IMG/VR virus record: IMGVR_UViG_3300029305_002203
Span: 31,565 to 95,564 of that record
Source: a virus
Taxonomy: Duplodnaviria > Caudoviricetes
Strand: one strand, 5' to 3'
Length of the DNA: 64,000 bases
The translations under genes were made by a program, and so were the position numbers. The notes beneath the pieces were generated by a model that made no database searches, had not been told where the DNA came from, and saw nothing but the letters and a program-made list of their open reading frames with translations. The stretch's first letter is position 1. Every line of letters starts with the position of its first letter. Of the stretch, positions 18,510 through 50,210 are shown piece by piece.

Positions 18510-21500
18510 TTATTTAGAATGTAGTTTCTGAATTACTTTTAGTGGTAATTCCTTAACTATTTCATCAACGATCATATCCGAATTATCCGGATTATAAACG
18601 TTAATATCACCAATGGTAATTTCCATAGGCGAATTTTCTCTTTTGTTAATTGGTGCAATGGAAGAATATGCTTTGTTTAAGTTACTAAACATATTTCCCA
18701 TTTGATTATTAGTTAACACAACTTCTCCATAAAGAAGTTTTGCCAGTGTTTCATTTGGTTTTAAGTTGTCCTCTGTTAAAGCTACAAAGTTTTCAGGTAA
18801 TTTATTCTTAGAGGTCGGCTTACCAACAATACCACCAGAATGGTATAGATGCATTGTTGCACCATTTTTACCACCTTTGTTTGAAGTTGTGTTACCTTTC
18901 GTGCCATTACCTTTGTTTCCATTAGTTCCAGCACTCGCAGCTTTTGCTTGATAATCAAGAATTTGTTTATAAGTTTCTTTTGCATTGGTAAGAATGGTTT
19001 CCAATGAACTAAAAGCAGAGTTAGCCTTACTTACCTGTGAAGCAATTTGACCATATAAAGACACAGCAACATTTTTAAATTCCTCTAATTTTTTCTGTCT
19101 TTCGTCTAAAATAGTGGCCTCAGAATCCTTTGCAGAAGTATGTGCCGATGTAACAAATTCAAGAGCAGAAGTAATATTAGCATCTGCCTCTGTCCATTTA
19201 TCAGATAATTCTTTTGTTTCATCAGTTCTATTCTGAATAGCCTCTAATTCTTCCTCGTTCTCAACTATTGCTTTATTGATTGCATCTTGAGCTGCCTTTA
19301 TCTCTAATTGTTTAGCGAGATAGGCTTCAGCTTCTTCTCTGATTTGCTGCATAGTAGTATTGTTTGCATCAATCTTTTCTTGAATGGTATCTACTTCAGT
19401 TTTAGCATTATTTAATGAAGTTTCTAAGATTGTTAATATACCTTCATCTTGTTGCAGAATACTATTTTCACCAGATGCTTTAAACAATTCAAGAAATGCT
19501 CTTTTAGAAATCAATCGTTCATAACTATCGGAAACTGCATTTAATTTCTTAGCATATTCTTCCCATGTCTTAATTTCATTATCAATAATTAATAAGTCAT
19601 CTTCTTTATTTTTATTTAAAGTATCAATCTGCTTATCAAAAGAAGCGATAGTATTATTATAATTCTGTTGGTCTAATTCTTGTTGAGCATCACGAATAGC
19701 ATCCTGATCTGCTTCATAAACAAAACCTTCTCCGGCACGATAGATACGCTGAGTCTTGTTTCGCATAGCTTTTTCAAGATTATACTTGGCATTCTCTAAA
19801 TCAATTTCTCTTTGACGTTCATCATTAGACTCTGTAAGAGCATCCTTTTGTTCTTGGATTGCTTTGATTTGCTCATCATAACCATCTGATAAAACTTGTC
19901 TTCTTTCATTTAAAGCTTCAATTTCATCTTGGACAAGAATGTTAGCATATCCAATTGCACTTTCTATTTTTGACTGTAGTTTGGTCTGATAGTCTAAATC
20001 TTCTTCCAATTCCTTATTTAAATCTTCGTACTGTTTTATTGGCAATAGAAGAATAGCTCTATTATTTTCTATTTGAGCAATAGTACAGGCATTAATATTA
20101 TCCTGAGCCTCTTGTACTTGGTCATTATATTCCTTATATGCTGCGGTTCCCCATTTTTCGCCATCACGTTTTGCGATAGCTGCTTTAAGGTCAGCTTTAT
20201 ATATCTCTTTGTTTTTTTCATGTAAGGCATTCATATCCAAGTATTGCTGTGCAGTTCCTTGACCACCTCTGGCTTCTTCCAAATCTATGTCGTTTTGAAT
20301 ATCTTGGATTCGGCTATTATAATAACTGGTTTTATTAGCACGACCTTCTCTGCCATTCTCATATTTTTTATCTGGTTCTGCCTCTACATATTCATCATAA
20401 GCCTTTTGAAGTTTTAATCGTTCTTCTTCGGTGGTTGCCAAAGCCAGATTAAGTTTTAGTATTTCACCTTTGATTCTTTTTTCTTCGTCAAGCCATTTAT
20501 TTTTTTCAGCGACAGTCATACTTTCTTGGTCTACAAGATTATGATTTTCAAGATTTAATTCATTTTGCTCAAGTAGTGTGGAATTGACTTCGTCTTCATT
20601 CGCTTTAAGTTTTTCAACAGCATCGTTATTTTGGGTTATTGAATCTTGCCATCTATCATAAATCTCAACAAGCTTCATAACTCGATTGTATTCTTCCTCG
20701 TTGTCAAAGTTCTCAATTGTTAGCTGACTTCTATCACCGGTTATCAATTTTATATATTTGGGGTCAATTTTAGCAGACTCTGTCTCCCAAATGCTTTTAT
20801 ATTCTTCAGAAGCTTCTGCGGTGGCAGTAACTAAATCCTCGTTTGCCCCCTTTAATTGCTTTAATACAGCCAATCTTTCAGTAAAACCCTCTGTATTACT
20901 AAGAGTGTTATCAAGTTCTTCAATTCTACGATTGGCATTTTCTACAGATCTTGCAAACCAGTCAAAATCTTCTGAGAATTTTTCTTCTTCACCTGAATCA
21001 GATCCAGAAGCACCAAATGGAAGATCGGTTCTAAAATCTGGAACAACAGTAGAAATAGAAGTATTAACTCCATTTATAATTTCTTCTATCTCAACAAGTT
21101 CTTTTTCTGCTTGTACCATATCATCATATGCAGATATAGAGGGATTTAAATAGTGAGTCCGGTCATTAACAGTTGATTCGTATTTTCTTTGAGCACTTTC
21201 AAATATTAATTTTTTACGAGCATACTCTTTATCCATAGCAAGTTTTGCTTCAAGATAATTTGAATAGTTGCCTAACTCTATGCCATATTCTTTTGCCTTA
21301 TTAATTAAATCTTCTGATAAACCATCAACAACAAGATCATAGAAAGATTCATCTTCGCCTTTTTTCTGAGCCATATATAATTTGTAATTTTGCAAATCTG
21401 CTTCGTATTCTTTTTGTAAATCCCTTAATAAATCTTTTTCACTTGCTTTGCCTTCTAAGTATTTATCAATAGTAGCAGTAAGACCGGGATATTGACTTGC

Positions 21501-23171
21501 AATATTTTGTAAAGTAGAAACAGATATTTTACCACTTTCAGAAACTTCGCCTTTTACAGTTTTAATCATGGAATGAGTAGACTCTAATTCAGACAACATT
21601 TCATCTAAACTAATATTGCTACTCTCTGTAGTCAGACCATCAAACAATTCTAAGATTTCATCACTGGCACCAGCATCTTGCAAAGAAGATTTTAAGCTTT
21701 TTAACTTGTCATCAATTAAAGTCTGAATGGCATATGACAAATTATCGGTTTCACTGGTAAGAGTAGGAAAACTTTGCAATAAATCTAATAGGTCGGAAGA
21801 AGATAAGTTATTATTCCTAATCTTATCTAAAGCTTCTGATAAACTATTTAAATCAGATTGATAATTATCTATTCCTTCTTGGTTTGTAGCATCAAACGAA
21901 AATTTTGGGACAGAAGTATTAACTGCTTCTTGTGATGTTGCAATACTATTTAAATATTGTAAATATACAGATGCGGGAGTTTGACCTTCTTCTAATATTA
22001 AATTAGCATCTTCAAGAGCAGTAATTAAATTATCATATTGAGCAATATCACTTTCAGTCAAAGTTCCATTTGCAAACTTCTGTTGAATTTCTTCCTTAGT
22101 TTTATCTAAAGATGTGTCATTTAAAGCAAAATCTATTTGAAGTGTATTCCATTCACCAGAGCCATTATTTAGCTGATATATTTTTTTCTTCCAAGACTCT
22201 ATATAATCCCACATTTGCTGATTAAGTGGATTGTCAAATGTACCGTCTTCATTTCTAAGTAACATTAATGTCTCTTGTTGCTCTAAAAATCCTTGAAGAA
22301 TAGAAGCAGAACGTTTTCCTAATTCTTCTTGAAGAATTAATTGGCTTTCTTGTAACGAAGTGACAAGTTTATCATTTCCCTCTGTTATTGCGGCATCAAT
22401 TTGATTATTAACGCTTTCTAAATTAAATAATAGCCCTTGGTCGTCTATACGAGATGCCTCTTTCTCATTAATTTGTGCTGCCCATCCATGTAGCACATTG
22501 CCTTCAGCATTATATTCTGTATCAAAATCTGAACCCCATTCATCATTAAATGTTTCTCTGTTTTGTACTGATAGTTTTTTGGCATCTTCTTTAGCAAGGT
22601 CTTCCTTGGTTTTCTTTTGTTCTTCTAATAATTTATTTTGCAGAATTAATTTATTAAGTTCATCATCTTCAACAAGAGTGATTGTACCTTCACTTAATTT
22701 ATTCCTTAATTCTAATATTCTTTTTTCATTATCTATTATTGCATTTCCAAGAGATTCAACTTCTTGGATAGTATTTTCATATTCATTTCTTAATTCTGAA
22801 ATTTTCTCTTTTTGTTCTTCAATGGTTGGATTCCATTTTTTATACACTTTAACTGCAAATCCTACTGCCACAGCGATACCAAGAATCCATGTTGCAGGAT
22901 TAGTAAGTATTGCGGCTGCCATAGCTTTCGCATTTGCTAATAGAGCAGTAGTATATGCTTGCATTGAGAATGTAGCCAACCCGGTTGCAGAGGCAGAAGC
23001 AGTTTTTGCAACAATAGCTCCCGTCTCTGTTTGGGTTAATTTTTTATTTGCTAATACACTTGCTTTTTGACTTTCGGTTAAATTTTTAGTTAATCTGTCT
23101 AATTCATCCGTATCAGTCGCAGTGCTTCTTAATGCCTCTCCAAAAGCACTCATACCTTTAAAATCAAATAT
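18510..23171 (-). CDS. tape measure protein C-terminal exon B (distal 3' exon, 1553 aa)
   Basis: no RBS; the called TTG start ends in the omega-G of UGUUUG|AUAUUU; TM segment NPATWILGIAVAV, long coiled coil; C-terminus paralogous to exon A. Confidence 0.8.
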   Translation of the reverse strand: MFDFKGMSAFGEALRSTATDTDELDRLTKNLTESQKASVLANKKLTQTETGAIVAKTASASATGLATFSMQAYTTALLANAKAMAAAILTNPATWILGIAVAVGFAVKVYKKWNPTIEEQKEKISELRNEYENTIQEVESLGNAIIDNEKRILELRNKLSEGTITLVEDDELNKLILQNKLLEEQKKTKEDLAKEDAKKLSVQNRETFNDEWGSDFDTEYNAEGNVLHGWAAQINEKEASRIDDQGLLFNLESVNNQIDAAITEGNDKLVTSLQESQLILQEELGKRSASILQGFLEQQETLMLLRNEDGTFDNPLNQQMWDYIESWKKKIYQLNNGSGEWNTLQIDFALNDTSLDKTKEEIQQKFANGTLTESDIAQYDNLITALEDANLILEEGQTPASVYLQYLNSIATSQEAVNTSVPKFSFDATNQEGIDNYQSDLNSLSEALDKIRNNNLSSSDLLDLLQSFPTLTSETDNLSYAIQTLIDDKLKSLKSSLQDAGASDEILELFDGLTTESSNISLDEMLSELESTHSMIKTVKGEVSESGKISVSTLQNIASQYPGLTATIDKYLEGKASEKDLLRDLQKEYEADLQNYKLYMAQKKGEDESFYDLVVDGLSEDLINKAKEYGIELGNYSNYLEAKLAMDKEYARKKLIFESAQRKYESTVNDRTHYLNPSISAYDDMVQAEKELVEIEEIINGVNTSISTVVPDFRTDLPFGASGSDSGEEEKFSEDFDWFARSVENANRRIEELDNTLSNTEGFTERLAVLKQLKGANEDLVTATAEASEEYKSIWETESAKIDPKYIKLITGDRSQLTIENFDNEEEYNRVMKLVEIYDRWQDSITQNNDAVEKLKANEDEVNSTLLEQNELNLENHNLVDQESMTVAEKNKWLDEEKRIKGEILKLNLALATTEEERLKLQKAYDEYVEAEPDKKYENGREGRANKTSYYNSRIQDIQNDIDLEEARGGQGTAQQYLDMNALHEKNKEIYKADLKAAIAKRDGEKWGTAAYKEYNDQVQEAQDNINACTIAQIENNRAILLLPIKQYEDLNKELEEDLDYQTKLQSKIESAIGYANILVQDEIEALNERRQVLSDGYDEQIKAIQEQKDALTESNDERQREIDLENAKYNLEKAMRNKTQRIYRAGEGFVYEADQDAIRDAQQELDQQNYNNTIASFDKQIDTLNKNKEDDLLIIDNEIKTWEEYAKKLNAVSDSYERLISKRAFLELFKASGENSILQQDEGILTILETSLNNAKTEVDTIQEKIDANNTTMQQIREEAEAYLAKQLEIKAAQDAINKAIVENEEELEAIQNRTDETKELSDKWTEADANITSALEFVTSAHTSAKDSEATILDERQKKLEEFKNVAVSLYGQIASQVSKANSAFSSLETILTNAKETYKQILDYQAKAASAGTNGNKGNGTKGNTTSNKGGKNGATMHLYHSGGIVGKPTSKNKLPENFVALTEDNLKPNETLAKLLYGEVVLTNNQMGNMFSNLNKAYSSIAPINKRENSPMEITIGDINVYNPDNSDMIVDEIVKELPLKVIQKLHSK

Positions 23172-23217
23172 CAAACATTATTATAATACATAATATATTA
23201 GGGGTATATTATATATT
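23166..23217 (-). other. distal group I 3' splice-site element
   Basis: 13-bp hairpin with CCCCUAA loop, then UGUUUG(23172)|AUAUUU. Confidence 0.7.
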
Positions 23218-23239
23218 CAAATTCAACTTTTACGGATAA

Positions 23240-23782
23240 TTATTTGTTGTCAATAATAAAATTTTTAAATTCATTTTCATATAATGCATGGCATGTTCCA
23301 TTCCCATAACAAGCAAAATATTCACTAAACATTGCTTCCATATTTTCGTGGTCTGTGATAGTAATATGTACTTTACCTTGCTCATCTACATTTTGACTAA
23401 AGTAACGCATACCGCCCAAGATACGATCTCTTAAAACGGCACAGTCCCGACGCTTTCCATCCTCATCAATTTTGGTTAAACGTTCACTTTGTTCATCAAT
23501 TTTTTTATCAAGTTGAGTACAACGATCATTCATTATAGATACAAATTTTTCAATTCTTGTTGATAATTCTTCAATCGCTGCAGTGTTTTTATCAATTGTA
23601 GAAACTTCTTCCTCACGTCCTTTTCTTTTATTGTAAGCTTTGATAAATACTCCCCACAGCCATTTAATGAATTTTTCCAAACCAACCACAATTGCAACAA
23701 TTACAATTAGTGCGGATAATAAATCCAAAAAAGTATGTTCTGCAAAATATTCAATCATTTGTTCTAGCATTTTACAAATCAC
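23240..23782 (-). CDS. membrane-anchored coiled-coil protein of lysis cassette (holin/spanin-like)
   Basis: one N-terminal TM, coiled coil, LRDRIL..GNG motif; follows endolysin. Confidence 0.55.
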   Translation of the reverse strand: MICKMLEQMIEYFAEHTFLDLLSALIVIVAIVVGLEKFIKWLWGVFIKAYNKRKGREEEVSTIDKNTAAIEELSTRIEKFVSIMNDRCTQLDKKIDEQSERLTKIDEDGKRRDCAVLRDRILGGMRYFSQNVDEQGKVHITITDHENMEAMFSEYFACYGNGTCHALYENEFKNFIIDNK

Positions 23783-23847
23783 CCTTAGTCATATCTGACT
23801 CCTCCCTCTTTTGTTCTAGTCTTATAAATATTTATAAGAATTTTTAT

Positions 23848-25539
23848 TTACACGGTTTTCCTGTCTTCCTTATGACCATATTGTAAGTAATGCAACACAT
23901 ATGGTTTATAGCCATCCTTTTCTCCAAATGCATTTTGTAAATCGGGATTGCTTGATTTATAAATTGTAACATTAAATGTACTTTTTGCTTGACGACCCTC
24001 TTTAATACCATAATTAATATAGTGATTAAATAATTTTGTAGCATCAGTACCAAAATGCCTCTTCAAATCACTATAAGAATTTGCATAGTACATAGGATCG
24101 AATACAAGAGAATAATCAACTCCGTTATATACATATCCCTTTGTCGTAGTGATATCTAATGGTTTTGAGGTTGAAGTAGAACTGGAAGAAGATAATTTAA
24201 GAACTTGTCCAACCTTAACGATATAAGGAAATTTAATCCTATTTAAATTAGCTATTGTTTTCCATGCAACACCAGTTTTCTGTCCAATCTTAGAAAGAGT
24301 ATCACCTTTCTGTACAATGTAAGTATTTGCTGATACTGTTATAACAGGGGAGTTAGTAATTGGTGTAGAAATACTATTGTCTACCTTTATTCCCACATAA
24401 TCTAAAAATCCTTTAGCTACATCTTCACCTTGTTCCTTGCAGAACATTTCAGTTTTCATTAATGCCGCTTCTTCTTTATTAGTCATAAAACCAATTTCAA
24501 CCAGGCAAGCAGCTTTAACATTCATAGCAACACAGTTACACATTGCAAGAGATTGTTTCTTTACACCACGATTCTTTTGTTTTGTGCCTTGAACAAGTCG
24601 TGCTTGTATTTTAGTTGCCATTGCAAAAGAGTCACCAATATATGCAGAATTACTATGAATTAATGTTTCTACTCCATTTGCAGAGTTCCATACTGATTGA
24701 TGTGCATTAGCATGAAAAGAAATAGAATAGTGACAACCCTCATTCTTAATTTGTTTCTGTCTTGTTGATAATGCCACATCAGGATCATCTGTTGCATTAG
24801 TATCATCCCAACCAACTCTGAATGTTGATATGCCGTATTTCTGCAAATACTGTTCACAGTAGTAAGCAGATTTTACGTTAATCCAGTGTTCCAGATGGTT
24901 GTCCGGGGTGCGCTTACCGGCAGTATTACTGCCATGACCAGCATCTATTGCCACTTTGCATACCATATTCCCATCCTCCTTTACTTTAATCTTTAAAATA
25001 TCATTTAAAATATCCAAAACCTGATATCCATAACTGTCCTTTGCTTTATTTGCCTCTTCCAAGCTTTTATACTTCTTGGTGTTATAACCCGGTACAGCCC
25101 AAGTCCCACCTAAATCTTCCATATGAGGAGCAGTCCCACCTTTAACATTTATAAACCACTGTGTTCTTCTAGGGTCTACATTTAGTTCATTTAAAGATGA
25201 TTTAGTCGCATAAGATTTTGCATGTTGTGCGTGTGCTAATATACCAATTTCAATGGAAGTAAAAGAGCAACCTGGAACTCCACCGGTAGCACCAATACCG
25301 GCAAAATTATTTTGTGTATATTTAACATCTCCACCATACTTTAAGTTGCCTGTTTCTTTAAGCATCTGACAGAAGATTAAATCCCCACGAACACCTTCTT
25401 TTGCTGGAATATCTAAATATAGCTGGCAAAACTCTATGACAGATATACTTCTTGAAAGTTTAGGATTTTTATTTTTAGACAATAAATAAGAAGCCATCTG
25501 TTGTGCAGTGGCTTGTGATTTTCCTAAAATTAAAGTCAT
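23848..25539 (-). CDS. endolysin: glucosaminidase-like + Amidase_3 + LysM + C-terminal repeats
   Basis: ETG..QNNFAGIG; IDAGHG..E..SFHANA..LVEIGFMTN; YIVQKGDTLSKI LysM; HY..YG.KEGR repeats. Confidence 0.9.
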   Translation of the reverse strand: MTLILGKSQATAQQMASYLLSKNKNPKLSRSISVIEFCQLYLDIPAKEGVRGDLIFCQMLKETGNLKYGGDVKYTQNNFAGIGATGGVPGCSFTSIEIGILAHAQHAKSYATKSSLNELNVDPRRTQWFINVKGGTAPHMEDLGGTWAVPGYNTKKYKSLEEANKAKDSYGYQVLDILNDILKIKVKEDGNMVCKVAIDAGHGSNTAGKRTPDNHLEHWINVKSAYYCEQYLQKYGISTFRVGWDDTNATDDPDVALSTRQKQIKNEGCHYSISFHANAHQSVWNSANGVETLIHSNSAYIGDSFAMATKIQARLVQGTKQKNRGVKKQSLAMCNCVAMNVKAACLVEIGFMTNKEEAALMKTEMFCKEQGEDVAKGFLDYVGIKVDNSISTPITNSPVITVSANTYIVQKGDTLSKIGQKTGVAWKTIANLNRIKFPYIVKVGQVLKLSSSSSTSTSKPLDITTTKGYVYNGVDYSLVFDPMYYANSYSDLKRHFGTDATKLFNHYINYGIKEGRQAKSTFNVTIYKSSNPDLQNAFGEKDGYKPYVLHYLQYGHKEDRKTV

Positions 25540-25561
25540 AATTTCACTTCCTTCTAAAGTA

Positions 25562-25593
25562 GAAGAGTACGGTGATATTTCACACCGTACTCT
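25562..25593 (-). terminator. hairpin between holin and endolysin
   Basis: AAGAGTACGGTGA..TCACACCGTACTCTT inverted repeat. Confidence 0.55.
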
Positions 25594-25602
25594 TAATTAC
25601 AA

Positions 25603-25950
25603 TTATTTACTTGTATTACTAGCAAGTTCTTTTGCAGTATTCAAATCTCTAACCGCTGATTCGATTAAAACATTCAATTCTTCCTCAGTAATAGAGTATT
25701 TGGTCTTATCAAGAATACCGTTAATAAAATTAAGAACATATTCCTTTTTCTGTTCTCCAAGACCAGTACCAACAAAAATCTGTTCTGCAGCTCTTACTGC
25801 ATAATCAACATACATTGCAATAGTATCAAACTTTTCTGCACCGATTTCCTCTTTAAGTTTAGGAATTACATATCTTGTAATTAAAACAACAGCCACTGTA
25901 ATAACTAAACCAATTACCATTTTTAAAATTTCCATCATCCATGTTTCCAT
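25603..25950 (-). CDS. LL-H family holin
   Basis: N-terminal TM, AVRAAEQ, G.QKK..V, LIESAV. Confidence 0.85.
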   Translation of the reverse strand: METWMMEILKMVIGLVITVAVVLITRYVIPKLKEEIGAEKFDTIAMYVDYAVRAAEQIFVGTGLGEQKKEYVLNFINGILDKTKYSITEEELNVLIESAVRDLNTAKELASNTSK

Positions 25951-26004: not shown

Positions 26005-26017
26005 AGTTACCATAACT

Positions 26018-26275
26018 TTATTCATTTAATATTTGATTAATATCAATTTGTTCCCATATCTCTTTTGGTAAACTACCTAATACTTTAGGAACATTTTCTT
26101 TTGCTGATTTTTTTAAGTACCAAATATTACAGGTGGCAACCTCGCCCCAAGCAAGAGCAGCAATAGTAGTAATATTTGACATATCTAAATTAAAAAAAGT
26201 TCCCACAACCAAAACAATTGTAAGAACTATTGCAGAAATATAACTTGCTAATAATATTTTTTTACTTGTCTCCAT
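26018..26275 (-). CDS. two-TM holin-like protein
   Basis: METSKKIL, 2 TM, WYLKKSAKEN. Confidence 0.6.
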   Translation of the reverse strand: METSKKILLASYISAIVLTIVLVVGTFFNLDMSNITTIAALAWGEVATCNIWYLKKSAKENVPKVLGSLPKEIWEQIDINQILNE

Positions 26276-26287
26276 AATGCTATTCCC

Positions 26288-27319
26288 TTATATCTCTTCA
26301 AAACTTTGTTTATCATTATTCCATTTATATTTATAATCTGAAATCGGTTCTTTTGTCTTATATGAAGCTATTTGATTAAGAGTATCACCGTCAGACCCTA
26401 TAAATATAATACTATTTTTCATTTGAAGCGACTCATAAAATAATATTGCATTAACCTTAACATCAGGGTCACTCCAAAATAGTTCCCATATATTTAAATC
26501 ATTTTTTTTTAAACAATAAAACCCACTGCCGGCACTATATTCATATAGATATATTTTATTATCATATAGAAATAGAAATTGTGGTCTAAGTTCTTCACAT
26601 TCTATATTTTCAATATATGAAAAACTATTTGTAGATTCTTTATAACTAATTATATAATGCTTTTTCGAAGCAAACATATGAATTTCATCTTCTATAACAT
26701 ATCCACGTTTATAAATATTATCATCAATTGATGGTATAATACCTCCACATGGAATCCATTCCTGCTGTGCTTCATCCCACACACAAGTTCCATTATAATT
26801 AATATTGGAAACTGTTATATTTCGATATAAACAAAATAATTTATTGTGTAACACAAAATAGTCACAATATCTTGAACTACTAAATTCTGTATCTCTAAAT
26901 CCAATGTGAGCAGCACCAATTTTATATGCTGCCCTATTTGTTATTTTGGGGTCATAAACATACATTTCGTTTTTCGCTTCATACATAATATAAATTAAAT
27001 CATTATATACTATCGCATGACATGGATCCGTGTATTGTGGTAAAACACTTGGTTTTTCGCTCCATTTAAATCCATTATATTTCATAACGCAATAAGGGGA
27101 CATGACATTATTACTACAATTAAAAACATAAATATTATTATCATATAAAACCGAAGCCTTCTCTGGATGATTAAATTTATATTGATTACCATCAGAATCT
27201 TTTGGTAAATCTGGCAAACGTCCATATTGTGAAAACACTTCTTTTCCATTATGAATCCAGTTAACAATATTATAATTATTAAACAAAACATTGTTTATTT
27301 CAATTCCGTTATATATCAT
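26288..27319 (-). CDS. module A Kelch/beta-propeller-like protein (putative receptor binding)
   Basis: repeated V-Y-x-x-x-I-Y-V / Y-x-x-x-x-W units about 45-50 aa apart. Confidence 0.55.
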   Translation of the reverse strand: MIYNGIEINNVLFNNYNIVNWIHNGKEVFSQYGRLPDLPKDSDGNQYKFNHPEKASVLYDNNIYVFNCSNNVMSPYCVMKYNGFKWSEKPSVLPQYTDPCHAIVYNDLIYIMYEAKNEMYVYDPKITNRAAYKIGAAHIGFRDTEFSSSRYCDYFVLHNKLFCLYRNITVSNINYNGTCVWDEAQQEWIPCGGIIPSIDDNIYKRGYVIEDEIHMFASKKHYIISYKESTNSFSYIENIECEELRPQFLFLYDNKIYLYEYSAGSGFYCLKKNDLNIWELFWSDPDVKVNAILFYESLQMKNSIIFIGSDGDTLNQIASYKTKEPISDYKYKWNNDKQSFEEI

Positions 27320-27329
27320 TATTGCCTCC

Positions 27330-27563
27330 TTATTCTGTATAATCAGATGAACGTGTGGTTAATACACCTGTTTCTTCATCAAAAGAAACAATAAAAATAC
27401 AACTATTTAATTGAGTTGTCATATCATCAATTTTTTGCGTCAAACTAGACCCATCACTCATTTCAACTGTATCAGCATGAGTCCATTCTGATACAAGTTT
27501 ATAATTTTCATCATCAATTTTTAAATGTCGTTTGTATTTTTCGTATCCAGATAATATTGACAT
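27330..27563 (-). CDS. module A small tail-associated protein
   Basis: THADTVEMSDGSSL fibre-type motif. Confidence 0.55.
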   Translation of the reverse strand: MSILSGYEKYKRHLKIDDENYKLVSEWTHADTVEMSDGSSLTQKIDDMTTQLNSCIFIVSFDEETGVLTTRSSDYTE

Positions 27564-27581
27564 ATTATCCCTCCTTTTTTC

Positions 27582-28301
27582 TTACATATTTAAGCCGATG
27601 ATTCCAAAGATATTTAAACCGTATGTTACTGTACTGTTTCCAATACGAACAACACATTCTCCATTATATTTTCCAATATTAGCAGTAATCTCAGAATAAG
27701 AAGCAGAAGATGTATGTGTATAATTTAATACTTCAGTATCATTTATTGTTATTGTAAAATTCTCATTTGCATAAAGATAAGCATCAATCTGCAATTTTCT
27801 TATACTAGATAAATCCATTTTAAGTTCTATATATGAATCTGAATTAACAAAATTTTTGGCAGATGATCCATTTGCATACTTACCATTTGTTAGTCTAAGA
27901 CCATTGGAATATGAACCTAATGTAATATTATTCTCACTCTCTAAGGTACAATTAGTGTATGCCCCATCACTATTACTAGATGCATTGTAATAATATAATT
28001 CACTAGGAGGTTGCAACCACCATGTTTTTTTGTCGGCATCTTCGGTTGGCTCATCACTTAAATATATCTCATCTAATGAATATTCATTGTTTAAAATATG
28101 AGTTCCTAAAATATTAATTCTTTCAGCCAACTCATTAAAAAAAGATGCTCTAGCACCTTTGTCATAATTTTCTTCGTCTAAATAATTAGTGGCTTCTGTA
28201 TATTTCCCCTCATTAATCAATGCAGCATGTGTATCAATTACATCTCTATCGTTTGCCCCCATATCACTTAATGGTTTAAATTTTAATTCTTCTATTTGCA
28301 T
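27582..28301 (-). CDS. module A tail fibre/adhesin-like protein
   Basis: N-terminus related to 28314..28643 and 13897..14856; beta-rich C-terminus. Confidence 0.55.
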   Translation of the reverse strand: MQIEELKFKPLSDMGANDRDVIDTHAALINEGKYTEATNYLDEENYDKGARASFFNELAERINILGTHILNNEYSLDEIYLSDEPTEDADKKTWWLQPPSELYYYNASSNSDGAYTNCTLESENNITLGSYSNGLRLTNGKYANGSSAKNFVNSDSYIELKMDLSSIRKLQIDAYLYANENFTITINDTEVLNYTHTSSASYSEITANIGKYNGECVVRIGNSTVTYGLNIFGIIGLNM

Positions 28302-28313
28302 ATTTCACCATCC

Positions 28314-28643
28314 TTACATGGGTTGAAACCAAGAACCATTTTGTAATTGATCTTCCGGTTCCTCACTACTAATAATGGTAGGAGAGTAATACATACTAAA
28401 CACTCCCATATTATATACTTCTTCGCTCAATCTATTAACGAAAGCACTATTTATAATGTATGGTTCTAACACAGATTTATTAGCTTCATAATACTGATAA
28501 GCACCTGAAATATCTTCCTGATCAATATATTCATAATAAGTATCAATCATTGTTTTAACAGTATCATTCACATCTTGTTTTTCCACAAAACTAGGCAAAG
28601 ATGTCGGAAAAGTGCTTCCGAAATTATGATTATAATTTGGCAT
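28314..28643 (-). CDS. module A baseplate attachment protein
   Basis: STFP..QDV..IINSAFVNRL paralogous to the N-terminus of 13897..14856. Confidence 0.6.
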   Translation of the reverse strand: MPNYNHNFGSTFPTSLPSFVEKQDVNDTVKTMIDTYYEYIDQEDISGAYQYYEANKSVLEPYIINSAFVNRLSEEVYNMGVFSMYYSPTIISSEEPEDQLQNGSWFQPM

Positions 28644-28646
28644 TTA

Positions 28647-30266
28647 TTATCCCTCCTCCTTTGTTATTAAAAATAAAGGATAGAATCTCGACATTGTAAT
28701 AGAAGTAGTACAAGACTCCATCTCATTAGATATGCTTTTAACTATATATTGATGAACAGTATCATCTTGTTGTTTTTGATATTCTACTTTTGTGTTTGTG
28801 TCTAAAAATGGTATCATTTTTGTTGCAATCGTTACCGTATCAAAAACAGAAGAAGATTGTTTGTTGTAATATTTTGCGTTTTCTATTGCTACTGAATCAG
28901 ATAAAATATTATCCCATTCATCACCATATTTAACATCTAACACTTCTCCAATTTTCTGTACAGCAAAAGGACTATCTGGTTCAACTCTTAATACTACATT
29001 TCTTTCATCACAATTATACTTATTAGCAAAATATGAAATAGTATATTTAGAATCATCTGCATTATTAGTCAATGCACAAAGAGCATGAGGTTGATATTGC
29101 CCTAAGTAATAAGCAACCAATTTTGTTCCTTGTTGTGCTATTTTAAATACATAAGTTTTAGCAGACTCAATTGTACCCGGCTCAATACTTTCCTCTGTAA
29201 ATTCTTTGTAGATTGGCAATACATCTAATTCATTAATTTGAAATTTCATATTTGTAATGTTAGTAGATGGTGAAACAAATCCAATATAATCTCCGACATC
29301 ATATCCTTCATAATCCTCTAATGTAAGTACATAGGTATCATTATTTGTCGTACAATCTGTACAATATCTATCCACTTCATATGATTTGCCAAAAACTTCT
29401 GTAACATTTTTAATGGTATCAATCGAATATGTTACATTTTCGGTTGATTCAGCTAACAATATTTGTTGTAAATAATCATTATCTAAAATCACTGAATCAT
29501 TTTCTCTTGAAGGAATCATATTAAAACAAAAATGTCCGTATATATCAAAATACATCTCGTAATTTGGATAGAGATTTTTAATCTCTTCGAAAATTTCTGA
29601 GATGTAAGCACCTACACTATATTCTAAATCATAAGGAAGTTGATTCCATAATGGTTGCAGCTTTCTATATTCTTCATAATTTTCATTGAATTCCGGTAAT
29701 GCCTTTGGTTCTCCAACATCGCTAATGATATAATCTGTAATTCCAGCTAATTCTTTTAGAATATCTTCGGTAAGTTTCTTAATAATTACAGGATTTCCGT
29801 CTTTGTCATAATTCGGAATGTCAATAATTGGAGCACCACCTAATTGCCCATTTCTTGTGCCATTAAAAATAGAGTACCAATCGGACAGATTAAGAGTAAG
29901 AGAGTTATCAATAGCACTATATACAGTATTAGCTTCAGTGATTAAATAATAACCACAATCAAACCATTTATAGTCATCATCTCTTAAACTATATATACCT
30001 ATTTGTAATAAAAAATTATATCCAATCCAAGAAAATAATCTTGTTTCAATAGAAAGCTCTGAATAATATGTGTCTAACAACAGTGTGAGAGAAGTGGTTC
30101 TTCTTATATCTGAATCAGGATCAACTGCATATGAACCTATATTTGAAATACCAACTAATTCATCAATATAATTTCTATTATTGTCTAAAACAATTAATTT
30201 ATATTTATAATCTACGGACGGTTGTGTTATTAAAAGTTTATCATCTTCTGTAATGAGATAATACAT
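28647..30266 (-). CDS. module A baseplate hub/Tal-like protein
   Basis: SDIRRT, LSDW..FNGTRNG, YEMYFDIYG, IPFLD. Confidence 0.7.
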   Translation of the reverse strand: MYYLITEDDKLLITQPSVDYKYKLIVLDNNRNYIDELVGISNIGSYAVDPDSDIRRTTSLTLLLDTYYSELSIETRLFSWIGYNFLLQIGIYSLRDDDYKWFDCGYYLITEANTVYSAIDNSLTLNLSDWYSIFNGTRNGQLGGAPIIDIPNYDKDGNPVIIKKLTEDILKELAGITDYIISDVGEPKALPEFNENYEEYRKLQPLWNQLPYDLEYSVGAYISEIFEEIKNLYPNYEMYFDIYGHFCFNMIPSRENDSVILDNDYLQQILLAESTENVTYSIDTIKNVTEVFGKSYEVDRYCTDCTTNNDTYVLTLEDYEGYDVGDYIGFVSPSTNITNMKFQINELDVLPIYKEFTEESIEPGTIESAKTYVFKIAQQGTKLVAYYLGQYQPHALCALTNNADDSKYTISYFANKYNCDERNVVLRVEPDSPFAVQKIGEVLDVKYGDEWDNILSDSVAIENAKYYNKQSSSVFDTVTIATKMIPFLDTNTKVEYQKQQDDTVHQYIVKSISNEMESCTTSITMSRFYPLFLITKEEG

Positions 30267-30267
30267 A

Positions 30268-31179
30268 TTACCACCAGCCCGAACCTACATTGGTTAAACC
30301 TGCGTTATACATTGTTTTCATATCATTATAATCGCCAATTTCAACCCATTCAAAGGTAATATCTCTAACATCACGATGACCACCGTGAGAATCTGTTGGC
30401 ATACCAGTAACTCTTATCAACCACATCCGTCCATCATCAATTTTAAGAATTAAAGGTTTATGTTTTGCCAATCTGTTTTTTAAATCATTTCTATATTGGA
30501 GACTTGCTGCTCTGTCTAATTCTGTATGTGTTACATCATCCATTTTTAAAAATGTTCCCGTAATTGAACCACTATCACAGTTAACAGAAGAGTTTGACAC
30601 AACATTCATATATTGATTATTAAGTAATCCTAATGATTGATTTTGTATATTTCTCGTAGTGTTGCATCCATCTACATTATAAACAGTTCCATATATAGAA
30701 TCTTTATCTGCAATATAAAATCCAGCAAATTCTGAATATACTTCTCCAATAATATAACTATTTTCTACACCGTTCATATAAGAAGAAATGCAGTATTCGT
30801 AATTTGTTTCTGACTTTGCAAAACTATCTCTAAATGTAAAAGAAAAGTCACCTATATCATTTATCTTTTTGACAAAAATAGTATTCCAATTAATTTCTCC
30901 CTTTTCACGTCTGCGAATTGCAATATATTCTGTGATGGTTAAATTAAAACCAGTGTTACCTGCTTCTAAACTACCTTTCGTAAAATTCGCATATGCTTGT
31001 GTATAATCAGTCCACTGGTCAGAATTTAAAACATCTGTTGTTTCATCAGAAGAAGATGAAAGATATAAGCGTCTATAAGTACCTTCGTATAATGTCATTT
31101 CGTCTATTGATTCTTTTGGTGTAGGTGGAGAAAGTAAAGAACGTTTTCCACTACAAAAAGTTGTACCTAAAAATAACAT
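30268..31179 (-). CDS. module A distal-tail-like protein
   Basis: MLFLG, LKIDDGRMW, WVEIGD, MYNAGL. Confidence 0.65.
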   Translation of the reverse strand: MLFLGTTFCSGKRSLLSPPTPKESIDEMTLYEGTYRRLYLSSSSDETTDVLNSDQWTDYTQAYANFTKGSLEAGNTGFNLTITEYIAIRRREKGEINWNTIFVKKINDIGDFSFTFRDSFAKSETNYEYCISSYMNGVENSYIIGEVYSEFAGFYIADKDSIYGTVYNVDGCNTTRNIQNQSLGLLNNQYMNVVSNSSVNCDSGSITGTFLKMDDVTHTELDRAASLQYRNDLKNRLAKHKPLILKIDDGRMWLIRVTGMPTDSHGGHRDVRDITFEWVEIGDYNDMKTMYNAGLTNVGSGWW

Positions 31180-31194
31180 GCTTTATTCCTCCTT

Positions 31195-32271
31195 TTATAA
31201 ATCTTTATATGAAATATTGAAATAATAATAATCACCATATCTCTTTATTTCAAAAACCATGCTTTTTCCAGAAACATAAATTTGTCCATTCTCATATGTT
31301 GCATCCGGAATTAATATATATTGATTATGGTCAGTATTTTTAACATTAAATCTACAATAATAATCTCCACATACATCAACAATACTTAAAGAATAAGTAT
31401 TATCTTTTGTGGAGAAAAACTTTTTCACAGGAAGTTTGACTGCCTCTATATATAATGCAAAATCATTTTCTACCAAAAAACCATCATTATAAGTTATACT
31501 ATTGTCATCAGAAATAATTAAAGCATTATCATCTAATGAATAATTGCCATTCTTAATTTCATATCCAATAACTTTAAGACTAACTGAAACTGTAATGTAA
31601 CCATTACAATAATTATTTTCTAATTGCAAAGTTACATTATTTGGAGGTATTGTTTCGTAATTGACATGAATTTGTATATACCCTGTGTCTAATGGCATTC
31701 CATGAACAGTTTCTCCAATCGCTCGAAAACTATAATACCCATCATTATTCATTTTATAAAAACTATATGTCATTGAAGTTGTAGAATAAGATGTGTTTGA
31801 AGAATTGATAAGAGCACCATTAACATCATATTGCAAAAATTGAAAACTTTTAATGGATTCATTTTCTTTTTGAGAATAGTTTAAACTTAAGGTGATATCA
31901 GAACCATTGTATTCCGAACCATCTACAATTTCATTAAATGAAAATGTTGGTGTCGAAAAACAATAGAAGAGTACAGGGTCAGATAATGAACTCTGTTTTT
32001 CAACCGTTCCAGTTTCTGATATGTATAATACTTGAATTTGAATTAAGTATTGATTCCCCGGTTCCAAAATATCTTTATAAATAGTATATGTTGTTCCACC
32101 AATGATACGAGTTTCATCAACAACTGTTTGTCCAGTTAAATTATCCACAATGACAGCACGTATTCTATTATGTTGTTCTCCAGCATACACAAAATTTATT
32201 TCATTATTATATTTTGGATCAAATGGGATAATCGCATTAATCATTGGAGTTGGTAACATTTTAATTGCCAT
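31195..32271 (-). CDS. module A Ig/FN3-like tail-tip protein
   Basis: PFD, SDPVLFYCFSTPTF, GETVHG. Confidence 0.65.
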   Translation of the reverse strand: MAIKMLPTPMINAIIPFDPKYNNEINFVYAGEQHNRIRAVIVDNLTGQTVVDETRIIGGTTYTIYKDILEPGNQYLIQIQVLYISETGTVEKQSSLSDPVLFYCFSTPTFSFNEIVDGSEYNGSDITLSLNYSQKENESIKSFQFLQYDVNGALINSSNTSYSTTSMTYSFYKMNNDGYYSFRAIGETVHGMPLDTGYIQIHVNYETIPPNNVTLQLENNYCNGYITVSVSLKVIGYEIKNGNYSLDDNALIISDDNSITYNDGFLVENDFALYIEAVKLPVKKFFSTKDNTYSLSIVDVCGDYYCRFNVKNTDHNQYILIPDATYENGQIYVSGKSMVFEIKRYGDYYYFNISYKDL

Positions 32272-32307
32272 ATTCCCTCCTTTCTAACAAATGTTTTATT
32301 CAAACAT

Positions 32308-32412: not shown

Positions 32413-32414
32413 AA

Positions 32415-32783: not shown

Positions 32784-32796
32784 AAGTATACCTCCA

Positions 32797-36180: not shown

Positions 36181-36256
36181 TCGTTTTTTCCTTTCTTTTT
36201 CATTGGTTATCTATAAATAAAATCCCACTTTTATTTAGGAGTAATATACTAAATTA

Positions 36257-36697
36257 TTAACTCTCTAATGGTTCAAATGTTACATCATTAGAAAGTGCCA
36301 CAGAACCTTCAAATTCCTCAATTGCTATTTTTAAAGATTCTATATCTTCAGTATTTTTATTAACTTCTGTTCTTAATTCACTAACAATCTCAGCTAATTC
36401 ATCTATACTTCCCGCAGACGGTTTCCTCCATTTGTTTACACCACATATAAACATATTTCTTATAATTCCACTAGGTATATTTACCCAAACAGATTGTCCC
36501 GGAGATAGAAGAGTGCCTAATGCATTCGGAACATTGTACATTTGTCCTAAATAATTAATACCATATGTTCCATCAGAATTTACTTTCCATACAGTAGTTT
36601 TGAATGTTTTATCATACTTTAAATTTTTTGTTTTTGTATCAGTGATATATACCATTTTTTTAATAAGCATATCTATAGCTTTATTATTTAGATTCAT
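36257..36697 (-). CDS. module A small tail-tip protein
   Basis: KYDKTF..VWVNIP; ATG after GAGGTG RBS. Confidence 0.65.
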   Translation of the reverse strand: MNLNNKAIDMLIKKMVYITDTKTKNLKYDKTFKTTVWKVNSDGTYGINYLGQMYNVPNALGTLLSPGQSVWVNIPSGIIRNMFICGVNKWRKPSAGSIDELAEIVSELRTEVNKNTEDIESLKIAIEEFEGSVALSNDVTFEPLES

Positions 36698-36716
36698 CTT
36701 TATCACCTCATTTAAT

Positions 36717-36748
36717 AAGAAGGTCACAGATTTCTCCATGACCTTCTT
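36717..36748 (-). terminator. hairpin after TMP exon A
   Basis: AAGAAGGTCA...TGACCTTCTT. Confidence 0.55.
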
Positions 36749-36756: not shown

Positions 36757-39700
36757 TTATCGTTTATTTATTGCTTGAATAATTTTACCGGGGAACTGAT
36801 TTATAATTGCTTTGCTAAATGTATCTACATCATTGACTTCATGTAAATGAATATCTCCAATAGACAATGTAATATTGTTTGTATTTGTAGTACCAGTAAC
36901 CGGAATCTTAAATAAATTATCGAAGAATTTATTATTTGTTAAAGTAGGTATTAACTTATCTGAAAAAGCTATTAGCTTCTCAAAGTTTTTGTTCTGATAA
37001 GGTGTGAGGATTCGTTCTCCATTTTGTACTGCAACAAGTTGATCTTCACCAACAGCTTCAGCAAGAGAGGAGAGTAGAGAATCTTCTTTTTTACCAACTA
37101 CACCACCTTTGGCATTGATTGGAATTTTGATAGTTGTTACTTTAATATCTTCCTTATGATAACCATTATCTTCTGCATATTCTATAGCATCAGATCTACT
37201 ATCGAAGACTTCATTGCCAACAGTATATCTTGTTACTTTTTTATATTTTGTAGAGTCATCAGGATTACTACCTTTAGAACCACTGTTAGAACCTTTCCCT
37301 GAACCGCTACTAGAACCTTTTCCAGCAAGCATTTTTTCTGCATCTAACGCAGCTTCTGCAGCTTTAACTGCAGCATCTGCCATTTCTTGTTGAATACGAA
37401 TATACTCATTCTTAAAGTTTTCAAGTACATCTTGACGTGTAGCAAGAATGTTTGCTTCCCATTCTGCACCAAGAATTTGCACAGCCAACATTTCGTTTTG
37501 GGCTTCCTCATATTCTTCAGAAACTCGTTCCCATTGCTCAATGTATTCTTGCAAATGTTCGATTTGCTCATCAATGTGCTTGGTAGCATCTTCCATTTCT
37601 TTCTCAAGTGCTTCGATTTGCTCTTCAAGTCGAGAGATATTCATTTGAAGTTCTTTATCTGCAAGCTCATCTTCAGCATCACGAATAGCTTCATCATCAG
37701 CAGTGTAAATGAAGTTGTCGCCAGTATACAATCTTTTCGTTCTTTGATTTCTTGCCTTTTCGGCATTATATCTAGCTCGTTCTAATTCCTCTAAATCTTT
37801 CTTTTTCTGTGCTTCTTTTTCAAGCAATTCGATTTCTTCTTGAAGCTTATCAATCTGTAATTGATATGTTTCTTCAATGGTTTCTTTTTGTTTTTCTAAT
37901 TGCTCAATTTGTTTCTCAAGCTTATTAGTTACAGCAGAAATTACTCGATCATATATTGACAACTGATTTTCATAGGTTGCTTCTAAGTAAGAGTAGTAGT
38001 CCTCTGCTTTGATTTTACCTTCTGCATAATATTGTTCGATTAAATCAAGACGCTTTCCAAGATACGTATCGAAATCTATTAATCCTGCATCTAATTGTTT
38101 TTCAAGAAGTGTAATCTCTTTATCAAGAAGATTTTTCCAATCATACTCTGAGCCAGAACTACTTCCGGAATTACTACCAAGAGAATCTAATGTAATATTA
38201 GCAACCAATGCATTTATCTTATCGATATCTGCGTATGCTTTTTTAGTAACTGCATCAACATCTACGTCACTGCCAAACATATCAATTGCCCATGCTTCAA
38301 TTTTTGACTTTGCAAGATGTTCATAACTGTCAGCTAATTCATAATTAGTAGAGGCTAAATAATCTGCGGCCATTTGCTCATTTGTAATACTGGTTACATT
38401 ATCAATGATACCGTTTATCATTTGAGCTTTCATCTCTACAATACGAGATTGGGCAAGGTCATACATTGCTTGCTCGTTTAATCCGAGTTGACCCTCTTCA
38501 AGAGTTAAATAATCTAAGAAGTCATCACCTTGTTCTACAATTTCTTGAAATTGATCAATGGTAATATGTCCATTATTATTATAAGTATCAATAGCATCAG
38601 ATAAAGTTTGATATGCAGATTGAATTTTATCAAGTTCATCATTAAGTTTACCTAATGTATTTAATTCTCCGTTTGCATTTTCGAGAGCAAAGATATCCGG
38701 AAATGTTTTATCCACAGTAATTTGGATATTTGCTTTTTCTTGTAATTCTTTAACCCATTTTTCCATATCATCGGCAGTACCCTCTTTTACATAATCAGGT
38801 ACTTCCACATCAATAATTAATGTTTGGGTTTCTGCATCAAGAGACTTATAATAATCTATTTTTTCTTCCGAATACTCAGAATCTTCTGGAGCAAAATTAT
38901 ATACTAAATCTGCTTGGTTATACAATTCCTGAATTAAATCTTTAAATTCAATTCCTGCTTTCTTACAAGCATTTTTTAAGCTATCAATTAATGATGAACC
39001 GAATTTTTCTTCAAGTGATTTAGTATCCATTTCTCCACCGTCAATGAAGTAATTAACAATATCTTGTTGAAGGTTTTCTAATCCTTCTTCATCAAAAACA
39101 GGAGTTATAATAAATTTATTATATTCACTATCAGAATAAATGGCTTTATGCATTTTATCTAGTTGCTTAGATACTTGATTAAACCACGATTTATCTTCAT
39201 CTGTCATCTTTGACATATCATTATCATAATATGATAATAAAACATCTTGATAACTTTTTAATTTAGAAATGGCATCATATTGTGCTTGCGTAACATTTTC
39301 AACTTCTTCATATGCAGAACCATTAGAAGTAACATGAAATGCACTACTTGCTTCACCTAATAAATCTTCGGGGTCAGATTTAAACTTTTTGTATGCTTCA
39401 TCGTTAGCAGTTTTAATTAATTTCTCTTGAAGTGCAATAGATTTTTCGAGTTCTATTCTTTGACTTTTTAATAAGTTTAATTGTTCTTTATCAGTAAAAG
39501 TAAGAACACCTTTTGATTGTAATTCTTCAATTTGTGAATCAATATTCTCTAGTTCTTTTTTAAATCCTTCAAGTTTTTCTTTGTTTTCAGAAATATCATC
39601 GGTTAATTCTTTGATTTTGTCTGCCAATTTTTCTGCATTATGAACATTTAAATCAATAACAACTGCTAATGCAGTAAATGTAGTAATCGCCAAAGTAACC

Positions 39701-48100: not shown

Positions 48101-50210
48101 GCATTATCTGTCTTTGTTCAATTAATTCTTCTTTAACTTCATGAAAATGTTTTAAACTTTCTATCGCATCATTCTTTATGATATTAGTAGCAGCTTGAAT
48201 TTTTTCATATACATTATCGTCAGTGCTTGAAATTGTTCCTTTGTTATAAAGAATTTCATTAGTATACTTACCTTTTTTATCTTTGGCATATTCAACACCG
48301 TTTATTGCCAAAGTTTCTCTTTTGGATTTCATAGATTTATCAATACGATTTATTTCGTCTTGAAAATATCCCTTAAATTTCTTTTTAACACCATCAATTT
48401 CTTTTTCTGATGGAAACAAACTACCTTCATCAAATAAAGAAGAAAGTTTTTCTTGCCATTTTTCTAATGTTTCTCCATGACCAAACTTTGCATATTTAAT
48501 TCCATCAACTTCTGTATAATCGCTATAATATGCAGATTCTGTTAATGCAGATTTATCTCCGGATTTTAACTTTTTATTTGATTTTAATTTCTTGAGTTCT
48601 TGTTCTACTAATTGATCTCTTTCTAATGATTTAATTAAATATTCTGTAGTAGCAACAATGTCTTTTTTGTTTTGAAGCACTTCACCACGTTTTCTAGTTC
48701 TTAATAACTGGTCAACGTTATAAACATTGTCTACTGCCTTTTGTTCTTGCTCAACACTTTTCTTAAATTCTTCAGACTGCGTACCAGGAATACCTGTAGA
48801 ATTCCATTGAGAAAGAATTGTTTTAATATCAGAGAGAGTAGTTTCAGTAGCAATACCACTAGAAGGATCTATTGTAAGATTTCCACCCTTGAGGTTAAAT
48901 TCATTTTGATTTACAAACTGTTGATGTTCAATTTCTTCTGAAAGTTCTTTTGCTGATTGTTCAACAGTAGATTCATCAATTTTACCTACAACTTCGACTT
49001 CAATCTTTTTGCCATCTGTTTTAAGTTTAGCATTAATATTTTCAACTTCTTTATTAATATTATTAACCAAATCAGACGAATCAGCTTTAATTTTTAAATT
49101 AATACTATCAAATAAAACTTTTTCCGTATCTTTCCCTAAAGCCTTGTCAGCAGCAAGAGCATCATCTTTAAACATAGACTTATCATAAGTATATCCAATA
49201 GGGATACGGATAGGAGAACCTTCTAATCTTTTTTCTACCTTTTCAATTACATCATTTTGAATCTTGTTTACAATAGAGTCAATAGCAGTATTAGTGGGAT
49301 CTTCAATAACATATTTGAAACGAACTTCAGTAGGATTTTTTTTTGTACTATCTTTTGAAGTATCTTCTTCTATAACATCTGTCACATATTTTAATTCTTT
49401 TTGCCAATTCTTTAATATACTTTTGTCAATACCAGAAGATTTGAATAAAATGGAATTGATATCAATACTCTTATTTTTATCTGCTCTACTAAGTTTATTG
49501 ATATTATTCAAAACCATATTAATAACAGCTTTTACTTCATCAACTACTTCATTTTCATCTATTTCCATATCAATGACCATTTGTATCTTATTTCCCTGGT
49601 CACTATTCATCAACTTATTTAATTCTTTTAAAGAAGATTTTAAATTTTTTTCTAATTTATCAGTTTCAGTTTCTATCTTTTTAGAAGAATCTTTAATGCC
49701 TTTTTCCATTTTTTGAAAACTAGACGCATCAAAACTTCCATCCATAATATTTTGAACTAAAGTTGAAACATCTGTAAATTGAGATACGACACCATTAATA
49801 GTAGAAGATAACTCGTCAAACATCTTTCCAATTCCGGATGCAAAACCTTTTCCGGAATTAGGATCATTTAAAAAATCTAAAGATGACTGCAATTCTTTCA
49901 TCTTATCTTGAACACCATTTATTGATGTTTCAATAGATGATTGCATATCCTTAAACTCTTTAGACATTCTATCAGTGTCTATCTTTCCAAGATTTTCATT
50001 AATAGATTTAGTACTAGAAACAATTTCTCCTTTTAATCCATTTAATGATTCGCCAATTTTATCTATTTGAGACTGTAATCCTGCAGACAACCCTTTTTTC
50101 TTAGATAACTCGTCAAGTTCTTTTTCTAAAATATTTATCTGTTCGGTTGCCTTATCTGTTACAGCAGTAATTTCTATTCCATATGTTTTAATTACATCAT
50201 AATTCGCCAT
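42168..50210 (-). CDS. tape measure protein, 5' exon (2681 aa; unspliced ORF stops at 42126)
   Basis: long coiled coil; TP901-type TMP core near the end (MDAAMTELRKV, WARLGYS, NEIGNNFAIS, LKILSLRVRG). Confidence 0.92.

Follow-up and report, generated by a model that had tools for sequence, protein, structure and literature searches.

The DNA analysed here is a 64-kb window of IMG/VR record IMGVR_UViG_3300029305_002203, which is 95.5 kb long and estimated to be 56% complete. The phage is called W below, and the L-, G- and P-numbers are labels of related phages, sequences or proteins that were compared with it. All features relevant to the tape-measure protein (TMP), its intron and the 3' splice sites (acceptors) were located on the minus strand of the window. 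In this direction, the head and tail genes are followed by the TMP open reading frame (ORF), a gap of 1.9 kb, ORF A, about ten tail genes, the holin and endolysin genes, ORF B, and five or six further tail genes (Table 1). By its conserved helices, the gap holds a group I intron that interrupts the TMP gene in front of A; the same acceptor signals open B, and this suggests that one 5' exon may be joined to two alternative 3' exons. The Pfam families YomU_Tube, YomW and YonB and an integrase at the genome end were found in close relatives, and this gene content assigns the window to a large SPbeta-like temperate siphovirus. The origins of the samples point to gut Firmicutes as the host group.

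The TMP 5' exon (exon 1) ends with the codons GGC GAT GGT, GGCGAUGGU, at 42168, and its reading frame stops 14 codons into the intron. The sequence GTTTGATATTT occurred exactly twice in the window, at 40268-40258 and 23176-23166, and both copies were in frame with the first codon of ORF A (40263) and of ORF B (23171), respectively. The chance expectation was 0.32 copies, with two or more copies in 5 of 100 shuffles, and the wider pattern GTT[TC]GAT[AG]TT was found at just the A and B sites on this strand of the whole 95.5-kb record. Chance alone is very unlikely to have placed a second copy, in frame, at codon 1 of a paralog of A. Both acceptors read G-AUAUUU (the hyphen marks the splice site here and below) and match the guide AAAUAU; this also holds in L033 and L034 and at the B acceptor of G001. 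ORFs A and B both start without a Shine-Dalgarno site and without an ATG. The energy of the duplex with the anti-Shine-Dalgarno sequence was +3.0 kcal/mol at A and +0.8 kcal/mol at B, compared with about -6 to -15 kcal/mol at nearly all other genes; GGAGG-type Shine-Dalgarno sites and ATG starts are present in nearly every other gene of the window. The locus has one intron body and repeated 3'-terminal intron motifs, each of which heads an ORF without a usable start.

These results agreed with an earlier reading of the same letters (the original prediction), which had placed the 5' exon end at 42168, the internal guide sequence (IGS) at 42122-42110 and the strand AAACA at 41861-41857, and had described A and B as ORFs that lack ribosome-binding sites and open with the acceptor motif. 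All of these coordinates held on the minus strand. Both joins had been given as in frame, and recomputing returned the same values: exon 1 plus A makes 3849 amino acids (aa) across an intron of 1904 nucleotides (nt), and exon 1 plus B makes 4234 aa across a span of 18,996 nt. The virtual exon 1-A junction is GGCGATGGT-ATATTTAAAGAT, with the predicted junction peptide GDGIFK, and the virtual exon 1-B junction is GGCGAUGGU-AUAUUUGAUUUU, or GGCGATGGT-ATATTTGATTTT, with the predicted junction peptide GDGIFDFK.

The intron was present at the same TMP codon in four other phages, L034, L033, G001/L004 and L100; exon 1 identity to W was 94% in L034, 78% in L033 and 47% in G001/L004. The core helices P2, P2.1, P3, P4, P5/P5a, P6, P7, P8, P9, P9.1 and P9.2 were placed by hand from the alignment of W, L034 and L033 and followed the canonical order; P3 is short (4 bp), and the assignment leaves out the CCAGG that lies between P7 and P3'. 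Helix P1 existed in three compensating versions, CGAUGGU/GCCAUCG in W, CGGUGGU/GCCACCG in G001 and CGGAGGU/GCCUCCG in L100, and compensatory changes were also found in P2, P3, P4, P8 and P9.2 of the alignment and in L1. The hairpin right after the 5' splice site is terminator-like in sequence; because its two strands covary between relatives, it was read as an RNA helix. Between W and L033, the core was 87.6% identical and the adjoining coding exon 77.7%. No endonuclease gene was present on the sense strand of the intron, and together with the covarying group I helices this bore out the proposal of a ribozyme without a homing endonuclease. The intron is predicted to be self-splicing and GTP-dependent. 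The whole record contained only one TMP core and one guide sequence. The core belongs to the TP901-type family PF10145, which was carried by near-identical homologs of exon 1 (94-96% identity). In uninterrupted TMPs, A and B align behind this core, where a hydrophobic and coiled-coil C-terminal half is typical of the protein.

A protein search returned about 30 clusters of B homologs, and the DNA was read for eight of them plus G001, which gave nine lineages. The INPHARED search found no relatives of the intron region, scans of viral, metagenome and genome sequences with B or exon 1 alignments gained one lineage and nothing more, and a scan with a 15-mer of the core gave chance matches and two unrelated introns only. 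The sequence GUU(U/C)G-AU(A/G)UU(U/C) opened B in all nine lineages, in which protein identity ranged from 73% down to 29%. CCUAA was located 21-26 nt upstream of B in eight of the nine, and the remaining spacer was unalignable. In L035 and L036, the junction codon UCG replaces UUG and the omega-G is kept; B in these two therefore has no start codon. In L026, B is preceded by a stop codon at a distance of two codons, and there is no nearby Met. ATA was the first exon codon in each of the 12 Ile cases (A and B sites pooled), against a share of 29% among Ile codons; this fits pairing with the guide. None of the eight B homologs whose neighbourhood was read stood directly behind an intron core, and five were demonstrably behind lysis genes. 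The B frames, about 1480-1820 aa long, were all intact in this distal position, which argues that selection acts on B there.

The intron and B were both known in four lineages, namely W, L034 with L024 (the same contig family), G001, and L100 with L026 (the same contig, reached by walking). The guide was AAAUAU in all four. The B start was AUAUUU in three of them and AUGUUU in L034/L024, which still pairs through a G.U wobble. The A start was more variable (AUAUCA in G001 and probably CACAG-AUGUUA in L100), and the guide matched B better than A in these two phages. Since the B starts match the guide and the A starts vary, B by base pairing suits the ribozyme at least as well as A does. The comparisons support selection on the B acceptor signals in the nine lineages.

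A and B are collinear paralogs with 31% identity in the best block. Four uninterrupted TMPs of 3.4-4.3 thousand aa (P0170, P0163, P0153, and P0076) aligned unbroken through the virtual exon 1-B junction, and the hydrophobic segment of B matched the segment after the core domain in the same four proteins. Because these TMPs align straight across the junction, B is, by alignment, a TMP C-terminal half without its N-terminal half. This bears on a first alternative, in which B is a free-standing gene with weak or non-canonical initiation at UUG or Met-7, it encodes a TMP-like tail-tip protein, and its motif was inherited from an intron-adjacent past. Gene callers did propose stand-alone B proteins of about 1550 aa, Met-7 was present in W, L024, L025, L101 and L102, and terminators ahead of B suggest a separate transcription unit. 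However, B has no Shine-Dalgarno site in a genome where almost all genes have one, and neither candidate start is conserved, as L026, L035 and L036 lack Met-7 and any nearby ATG and the latter two have UCG for UUG as well. The non-coding GUUYG and CCUAA were retained while the spacer around them was randomised, and ATA was fixed at codon 1. B also lacks the TMP core domain, yet it aligns as the direct continuation of that core in the uninterrupted homologs. We consider the free-standing gene unlikely.

Each C-terminal half is followed by its own tail-tip module, and four paralog pairs were recognised between modules A and B (358/337, 303/296, 539/469, and 109/319 aa). The 539- and 469-aa proteins belong to DUF5048 and are hub-like. 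The top Foldseek matches of the 469-aa model were all VgrG, gp27, Mu gp44 and Tal hubs, to E = 2e-8, with a mean pLDDT (predicted local distance difference test) of only 58; a gp27/VgrG/Tal-type hub is proposed for the pair with low confidence. The PDB sequence search with three module B proteins gave no matches, and the model of the 337-aa protein showed tandem FN3/Ig domains only.

Exon 1 of W and L034 shared 91.5% nucleotide identity, yet their A exons were unrelated (about 53%). In the comparison of window 36757-40263 with L034 from 19665 onward and L033 from 20973 onward, nucleotide identity of the A exons was about 54%, despite 78-94% identity in exon 1 and near-identical cores. L033, G001 and L100 each had a different A module. 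Since exon 1 and the intron are shared and the A exons unrelated, the intron is, by these comparisons, a sharp recombination boundary for tail-tip modules, the proximal module being variable and the distal one conserved. In the P0066 phage, the module directly behind the intron has B-like gene sizes. The boundary and the P0066 arrangement would suit a second alternative, namely that exon B with its module is a stored or relic cassette, acquired through recombination at the intron and put to use by module exchange at the DNA level, not by splicing from its present place. A silent frame of 4.6 kb would decay, however, and the distal B frames were intact in nine of nine lineages at 29-73% identity. 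There were no long repeats linking the A and B junctions, and a deletion between the two 11-nt repeats would take out the lysis genes. The downstream module B genes have normal Shine-Dalgarno sites, which argues that they are expressed and need a partner. We regard such a cassette as quite improbable. A DNA switch, in which the tyrosine recombinase encoded within the tail gene cluster (53653..54723) would move B beside the intron in part of the population, is very improbable, because neither inverted nor direct repeats that would suit a recombinase were found beside the modules and the enzyme is absent from the P0066 phage.

The preferred reading, in which the ribozyme joins exon 1 to either A or B, asks how a distant acceptor could reach the core. 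The compact intron of L100 (695 nt) has a 3' domain that consists of GUUAGGG...CCUAAC, a small hairpin, and AUGUGGAAA...UUUCCACA with the final G in front of the splice site. In W, AUGUGGAA pairs with UUCCACAU, 17 nt before the omega-G of A; because this helix spans the cargo DNA, the latter appears as a 1.35-kb insertion in a loop. Minimum-free-energy folds of the W, L034 and L033 introns closed GUUAGG with CCUAAC in all three. The B cassette has a second copy of this intron 3' strand (CCCUAA), which may serve as an address for docking of the far acceptor to the core. CCTAAYAYRTT was considered as a repeated promoter-like motif and was not one within the window. A pairing of the G001 B leader with GUGCACU of the G001 core was withdrawn, as this segment is more likely the P7' strand in a divergent core.

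The ribozyme core, the first ~430 nt of the intron, would hold exon 1 through P1. The 3' site would be chosen by three contacts: GUUU with AAAC (P9.0), the omega-G in the G site, and AUAUUU with AAAUAU (P10). Acceptor A, 1.9 kb downstream, would be brought to the core by the AUGUGGAA/UUCCACAU helix. Acceptor B lies 19 kb downstream, past tail module A and the lysis genes, and its own CCCUAA could displace the internal CCUAAC in the pairing with GUUAGGG of the core. Each of the two TMPs would carry a C-terminal half followed by its own Dit/Tal-type genes, and the two products would probably seed different tail tips. A cis join on one long late transcript and a trans join between two transcripts are equally possible. 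The former requires a transcript of 19 kb or more. Late transcripts may plausibly be long, because the late genes of SPbeta form a single operon transcribed by the processive polymerase YonO (PMC5467207).

Several observations weigh against this reading. The Rfam model RF00028 gave no group I match in W, neither at the gathering threshold nor even at E = 10. The same search missed evident introns in L004, L005, L008 and L014 and matched only L012, and the model is therefore considered insensitive to introns of this kind; the comparative data settle, through compensating base pairs, that the group I intron is real. Covariation of the IGS with its splice sites had been put forward as a check, and it was found in P1, whereas P9.0, P10 and both boxes were conserved without covarying; the lineage with altered P9.0 and P10 (GUUCG-AUAUUC) was represented by its B sequence. 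A bidirectional terminator lies within the intron, terminator-like hairpins were found directly before the B box in L026, L035, L036 and L101, and another lies at 26004-25985 of the window. Because of these terminators, a single 19-kb precursor would need read-through, or else the join would be made in trans. Met at codon 7, a possible start of a free-standing protein, was present in about half of the lineages. In an unbiased duplex test, pairing of the B leader with the core was not above that of shuffles in W or G001, and the case for the CCUAA/GUUAGGG pairing is thus its conservation and the match to the internal strand, not its energy.

Taken together, the evidence makes it reasonably probable that the ribozyme also ligates exon 1 to B, whether in cis or in trans. 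Of the predicted pair of TMPs, the comparative part stood firm (the intron, the absence of a start at B, and the conserved acceptor), and the join of exon 1 to B in RNA we infer from it. Two virion types would be a possible outcome, and bet-hedging would be a further step beyond them. A more far-reaching scheme is tentative and on the whole doubtful. In this scheme, the ribozyme would select both the isoform and the tail module, and the exchange of CCCUAA and CCUAAC on GUUAGGG, possibly between transcripts, would decide the tail. One genome would then have two host ranges with no change in DNA, and the device would be common to a clade of gut phages that freely exchange the proximal module and keep the distal one.

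Table 1. Positions of the TMP exons, intron elements, acceptors and neighbouring modules in the window.
Feature	Position	Strand	Remarks
TMP ORF, 2694 codons	42126..50210	-	
TMP 5' exon (exon 1), 2681 codons	42168..50210	-	own ATG and strong Shine-Dalgarno site
P1/P10 region	42110..42174	-	exon strand CGAUGGU 42174-42168; covariation in relatives
L1 hairpin AGGCUC/GAGCCU	42167-42148	-	covaries as AGGGUU/AACCCU in a relative
P10 guide AAAUAU	42122-42117	-	exact complement of AUAUUU
P1 guide GCCAUCG	42116-42110	-	pairs with CGAUGGU, closing U.G at splice site
Ribozyme core, intron nt 1-428	41740..42167	-	from alignment and pair check
P7, with bulged C	GACUA 41916-41912 and UAGUC 41867-41863	-	
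J7/9 AAAC	41861-41858	-	UAGUCU 41867-41862, then AAACA 41861-41857
3' peripheral domain	41613..41792	-	GUUAGGG 41792-41786 pairs with internal CCUAAC 41683-41678
Helix 5' strand AUGUGGAA, predicted to dock acceptor A	41620-41613	-	pairs with UUCCACAU
Variable intron interior (cargo DNA)	40264..41612	-	opposite-strand genes and bidirectional terminator
Acceptor A	40264..40288	-	box UUCCACAU 40288-40281, then GUUUG, omega-G 40264
ORF A	36757..40266	-	
3' exon A, 1168 codons	36757..40263	-	no Shine-Dalgarno site or ATG; uninterrupted TMPs P0123 and P0091 align across the junction with exon 1
Tail-tip module A	26018..36739	-	includes 358-, 303- and 539-aa proteins
Pectate-lyase-like protein, 1127 aa, module A	32797..36180	-	
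Lysis cassette between modules	23240..25950	-	includes a 180-aa ORF
Holin	25603..25950	-	
Endolysin	23848..25539	-	
Acceptor B cassette	23172..23204	-	box CCCCUAAU 23204-23197, 20-nt spacer, GUUUG, omega-G 23172
ORF B	18510..23174	-	
Putative 3' exon B, 1553 codons	18510..23171	-	no Shine-Dalgarno site or ATG at start; paralog of A
Tail-tip module B	13897..18439	-	82-, 337-, 296-, 469- and 319-aa (fibre) proteins

The interior of the intron was not alignable between relatives. On its opposite (plus) strand, window 40336-41135 contains two genes. The first, which has a promoter and a Shine-Dalgarno site of its own, codes for a protein of 182 aa that ends in a zinc ribbon (PF23451), and L033 and L034 have other zinc-ribbon genes at the same place. 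The second, a 61-aa ORF, is followed by a strong terminator at 41119-41149. The segment 41157-41500 resembles a type I toxin-antitoxin cassette of the par/Fst type. It consists of a plus-strand promoter (41157-41185), a long leader, a Shine-Dalgarno site, a 25-aa hydrophobic ORF (41302..41379; MEQLTLFLFLLIVVATIELIKNIKE), a bidirectional terminator at about 41377-41412, and a GUGCUAUCC...GGUUAG repeat on both converging strands.

Further introns were observed in the same TMP gene of L100 (1866-2891, with a 244-aa endonuclease-like ORF) and L004 (16736-18115, 303 aa), and L012 contains a group I intron recognised by Rfam (16366-16645) beside a GIY-YIG-like ORF. In a different phage group, another family of TMP C-terminal ORFs (P0048-P0058, about 1720-1740 aa, PF19127/PF19085) opens with ...W-L followed across the putative site by IFQTF, which suggests the same kind of acceptor (...UUG-AUAUUU).

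Between the tail tube and TMP genes, window 53200-54723 encodes the tyrosine recombinase (356 aa, PF00589) and a T5orf172/MUG113 protein (145 aa), both of which were conserved in L033 and L034. At the end of module B (10879-13927), there are a 442-aa ORF (12599..13927), two small ORFs and a radical SAM enzyme (10879..12207, phrog_1802). The segment 8364-10226 encodes a TubZ-like tubulin (350 aa; PF00091, TubZ_C_3) beside a DNA-binding protein that resembles DnaD and replication initiators, and this pair is probably a prophage partition or replication module.

If the preferred reading is true, a group I ribozyme would choose between 3' exons 17 kb apart, which would be new in three ways. First, it would add a route of tail and host-range diversification beside invertible fibre segments, diversity-generating retroelements and dual receptor-binding proteins. 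Second, group I introns could be domesticated as devices of gene expression. Third, there would be a natural case of very long-range or trans capture of a 3' splice site, with a short addressing code reusable in RNA engineering. To our knowledge, there is hardly any functional alternative splicing in bacteria or their viruses, and C.te.I1 of Clostridium tetani is the one proven case. In the T4 sunY (nrdD) intron, the core is reportedly far from the 3' splice site and a 3'-terminal segment docks back onto it; unlike in W, the distance is said to be below 1 kb and there is one acceptor.

Group I introns have been described in TMP genes before, as TMP-IVS1, TMP-IVS2 and TMP-IVS3 of prophages in the Bacillus cereus group (Tourasse and Kolsto 2008, PMC2504315). 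They share with the W intron the in-frame insertion in a TMP gene, the stop soon after the 5' splice site and, mostly, the lack of an endonuclease. However, they are compact and have a single acceptor, and no second C-terminal exon or tail module was described with them. Searches of the literature turned up no group I intron that has alternative 3' exons. The original prediction had gone further and knew of no described equivalent, which was too strong in view of C.te.I1 (PMC3919590) and of exon skipping in the phages Twort and SIOphi (PMC11878797).

In the group II intron C.te.I1, the choice among four 3' splice sites gives isoforms of a surface protein (McNeil, Simon and Zimmerly 2014, PMC3919590). 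As in W, one 5' exon and one ribozyme body are combined with repeated 3'-terminal intron motifs that head different 3' exons, several isoforms arise from one locus (in W, by prediction), there is no intron-encoded protein, and the organism, or in W the probable host, belongs to the Firmicutes. The repeated part in C.te.I1 is D5/D6, whereas in W it is a short box with P9.0, omega-G and P10. The four acceptors of C.te.I1 lie within 5 kb of a bacterial surface-layer locus, whereas W is a phage and its two acceptors are 17 kb apart with gene modules between them. C.te.I1 was shown by reverse transcription PCR, whereas the W case is predicted from sequence. The group I introns of Twort and SIOphi (PMC11878797) resemble that of W in that a phage gene gives more than one ligated product. 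They differ in that two or three complete introns are involved and a whole exon is skipped, whereas W has a single core with two acceptors, and both of its products would be full-length isoforms matched to gene modules.

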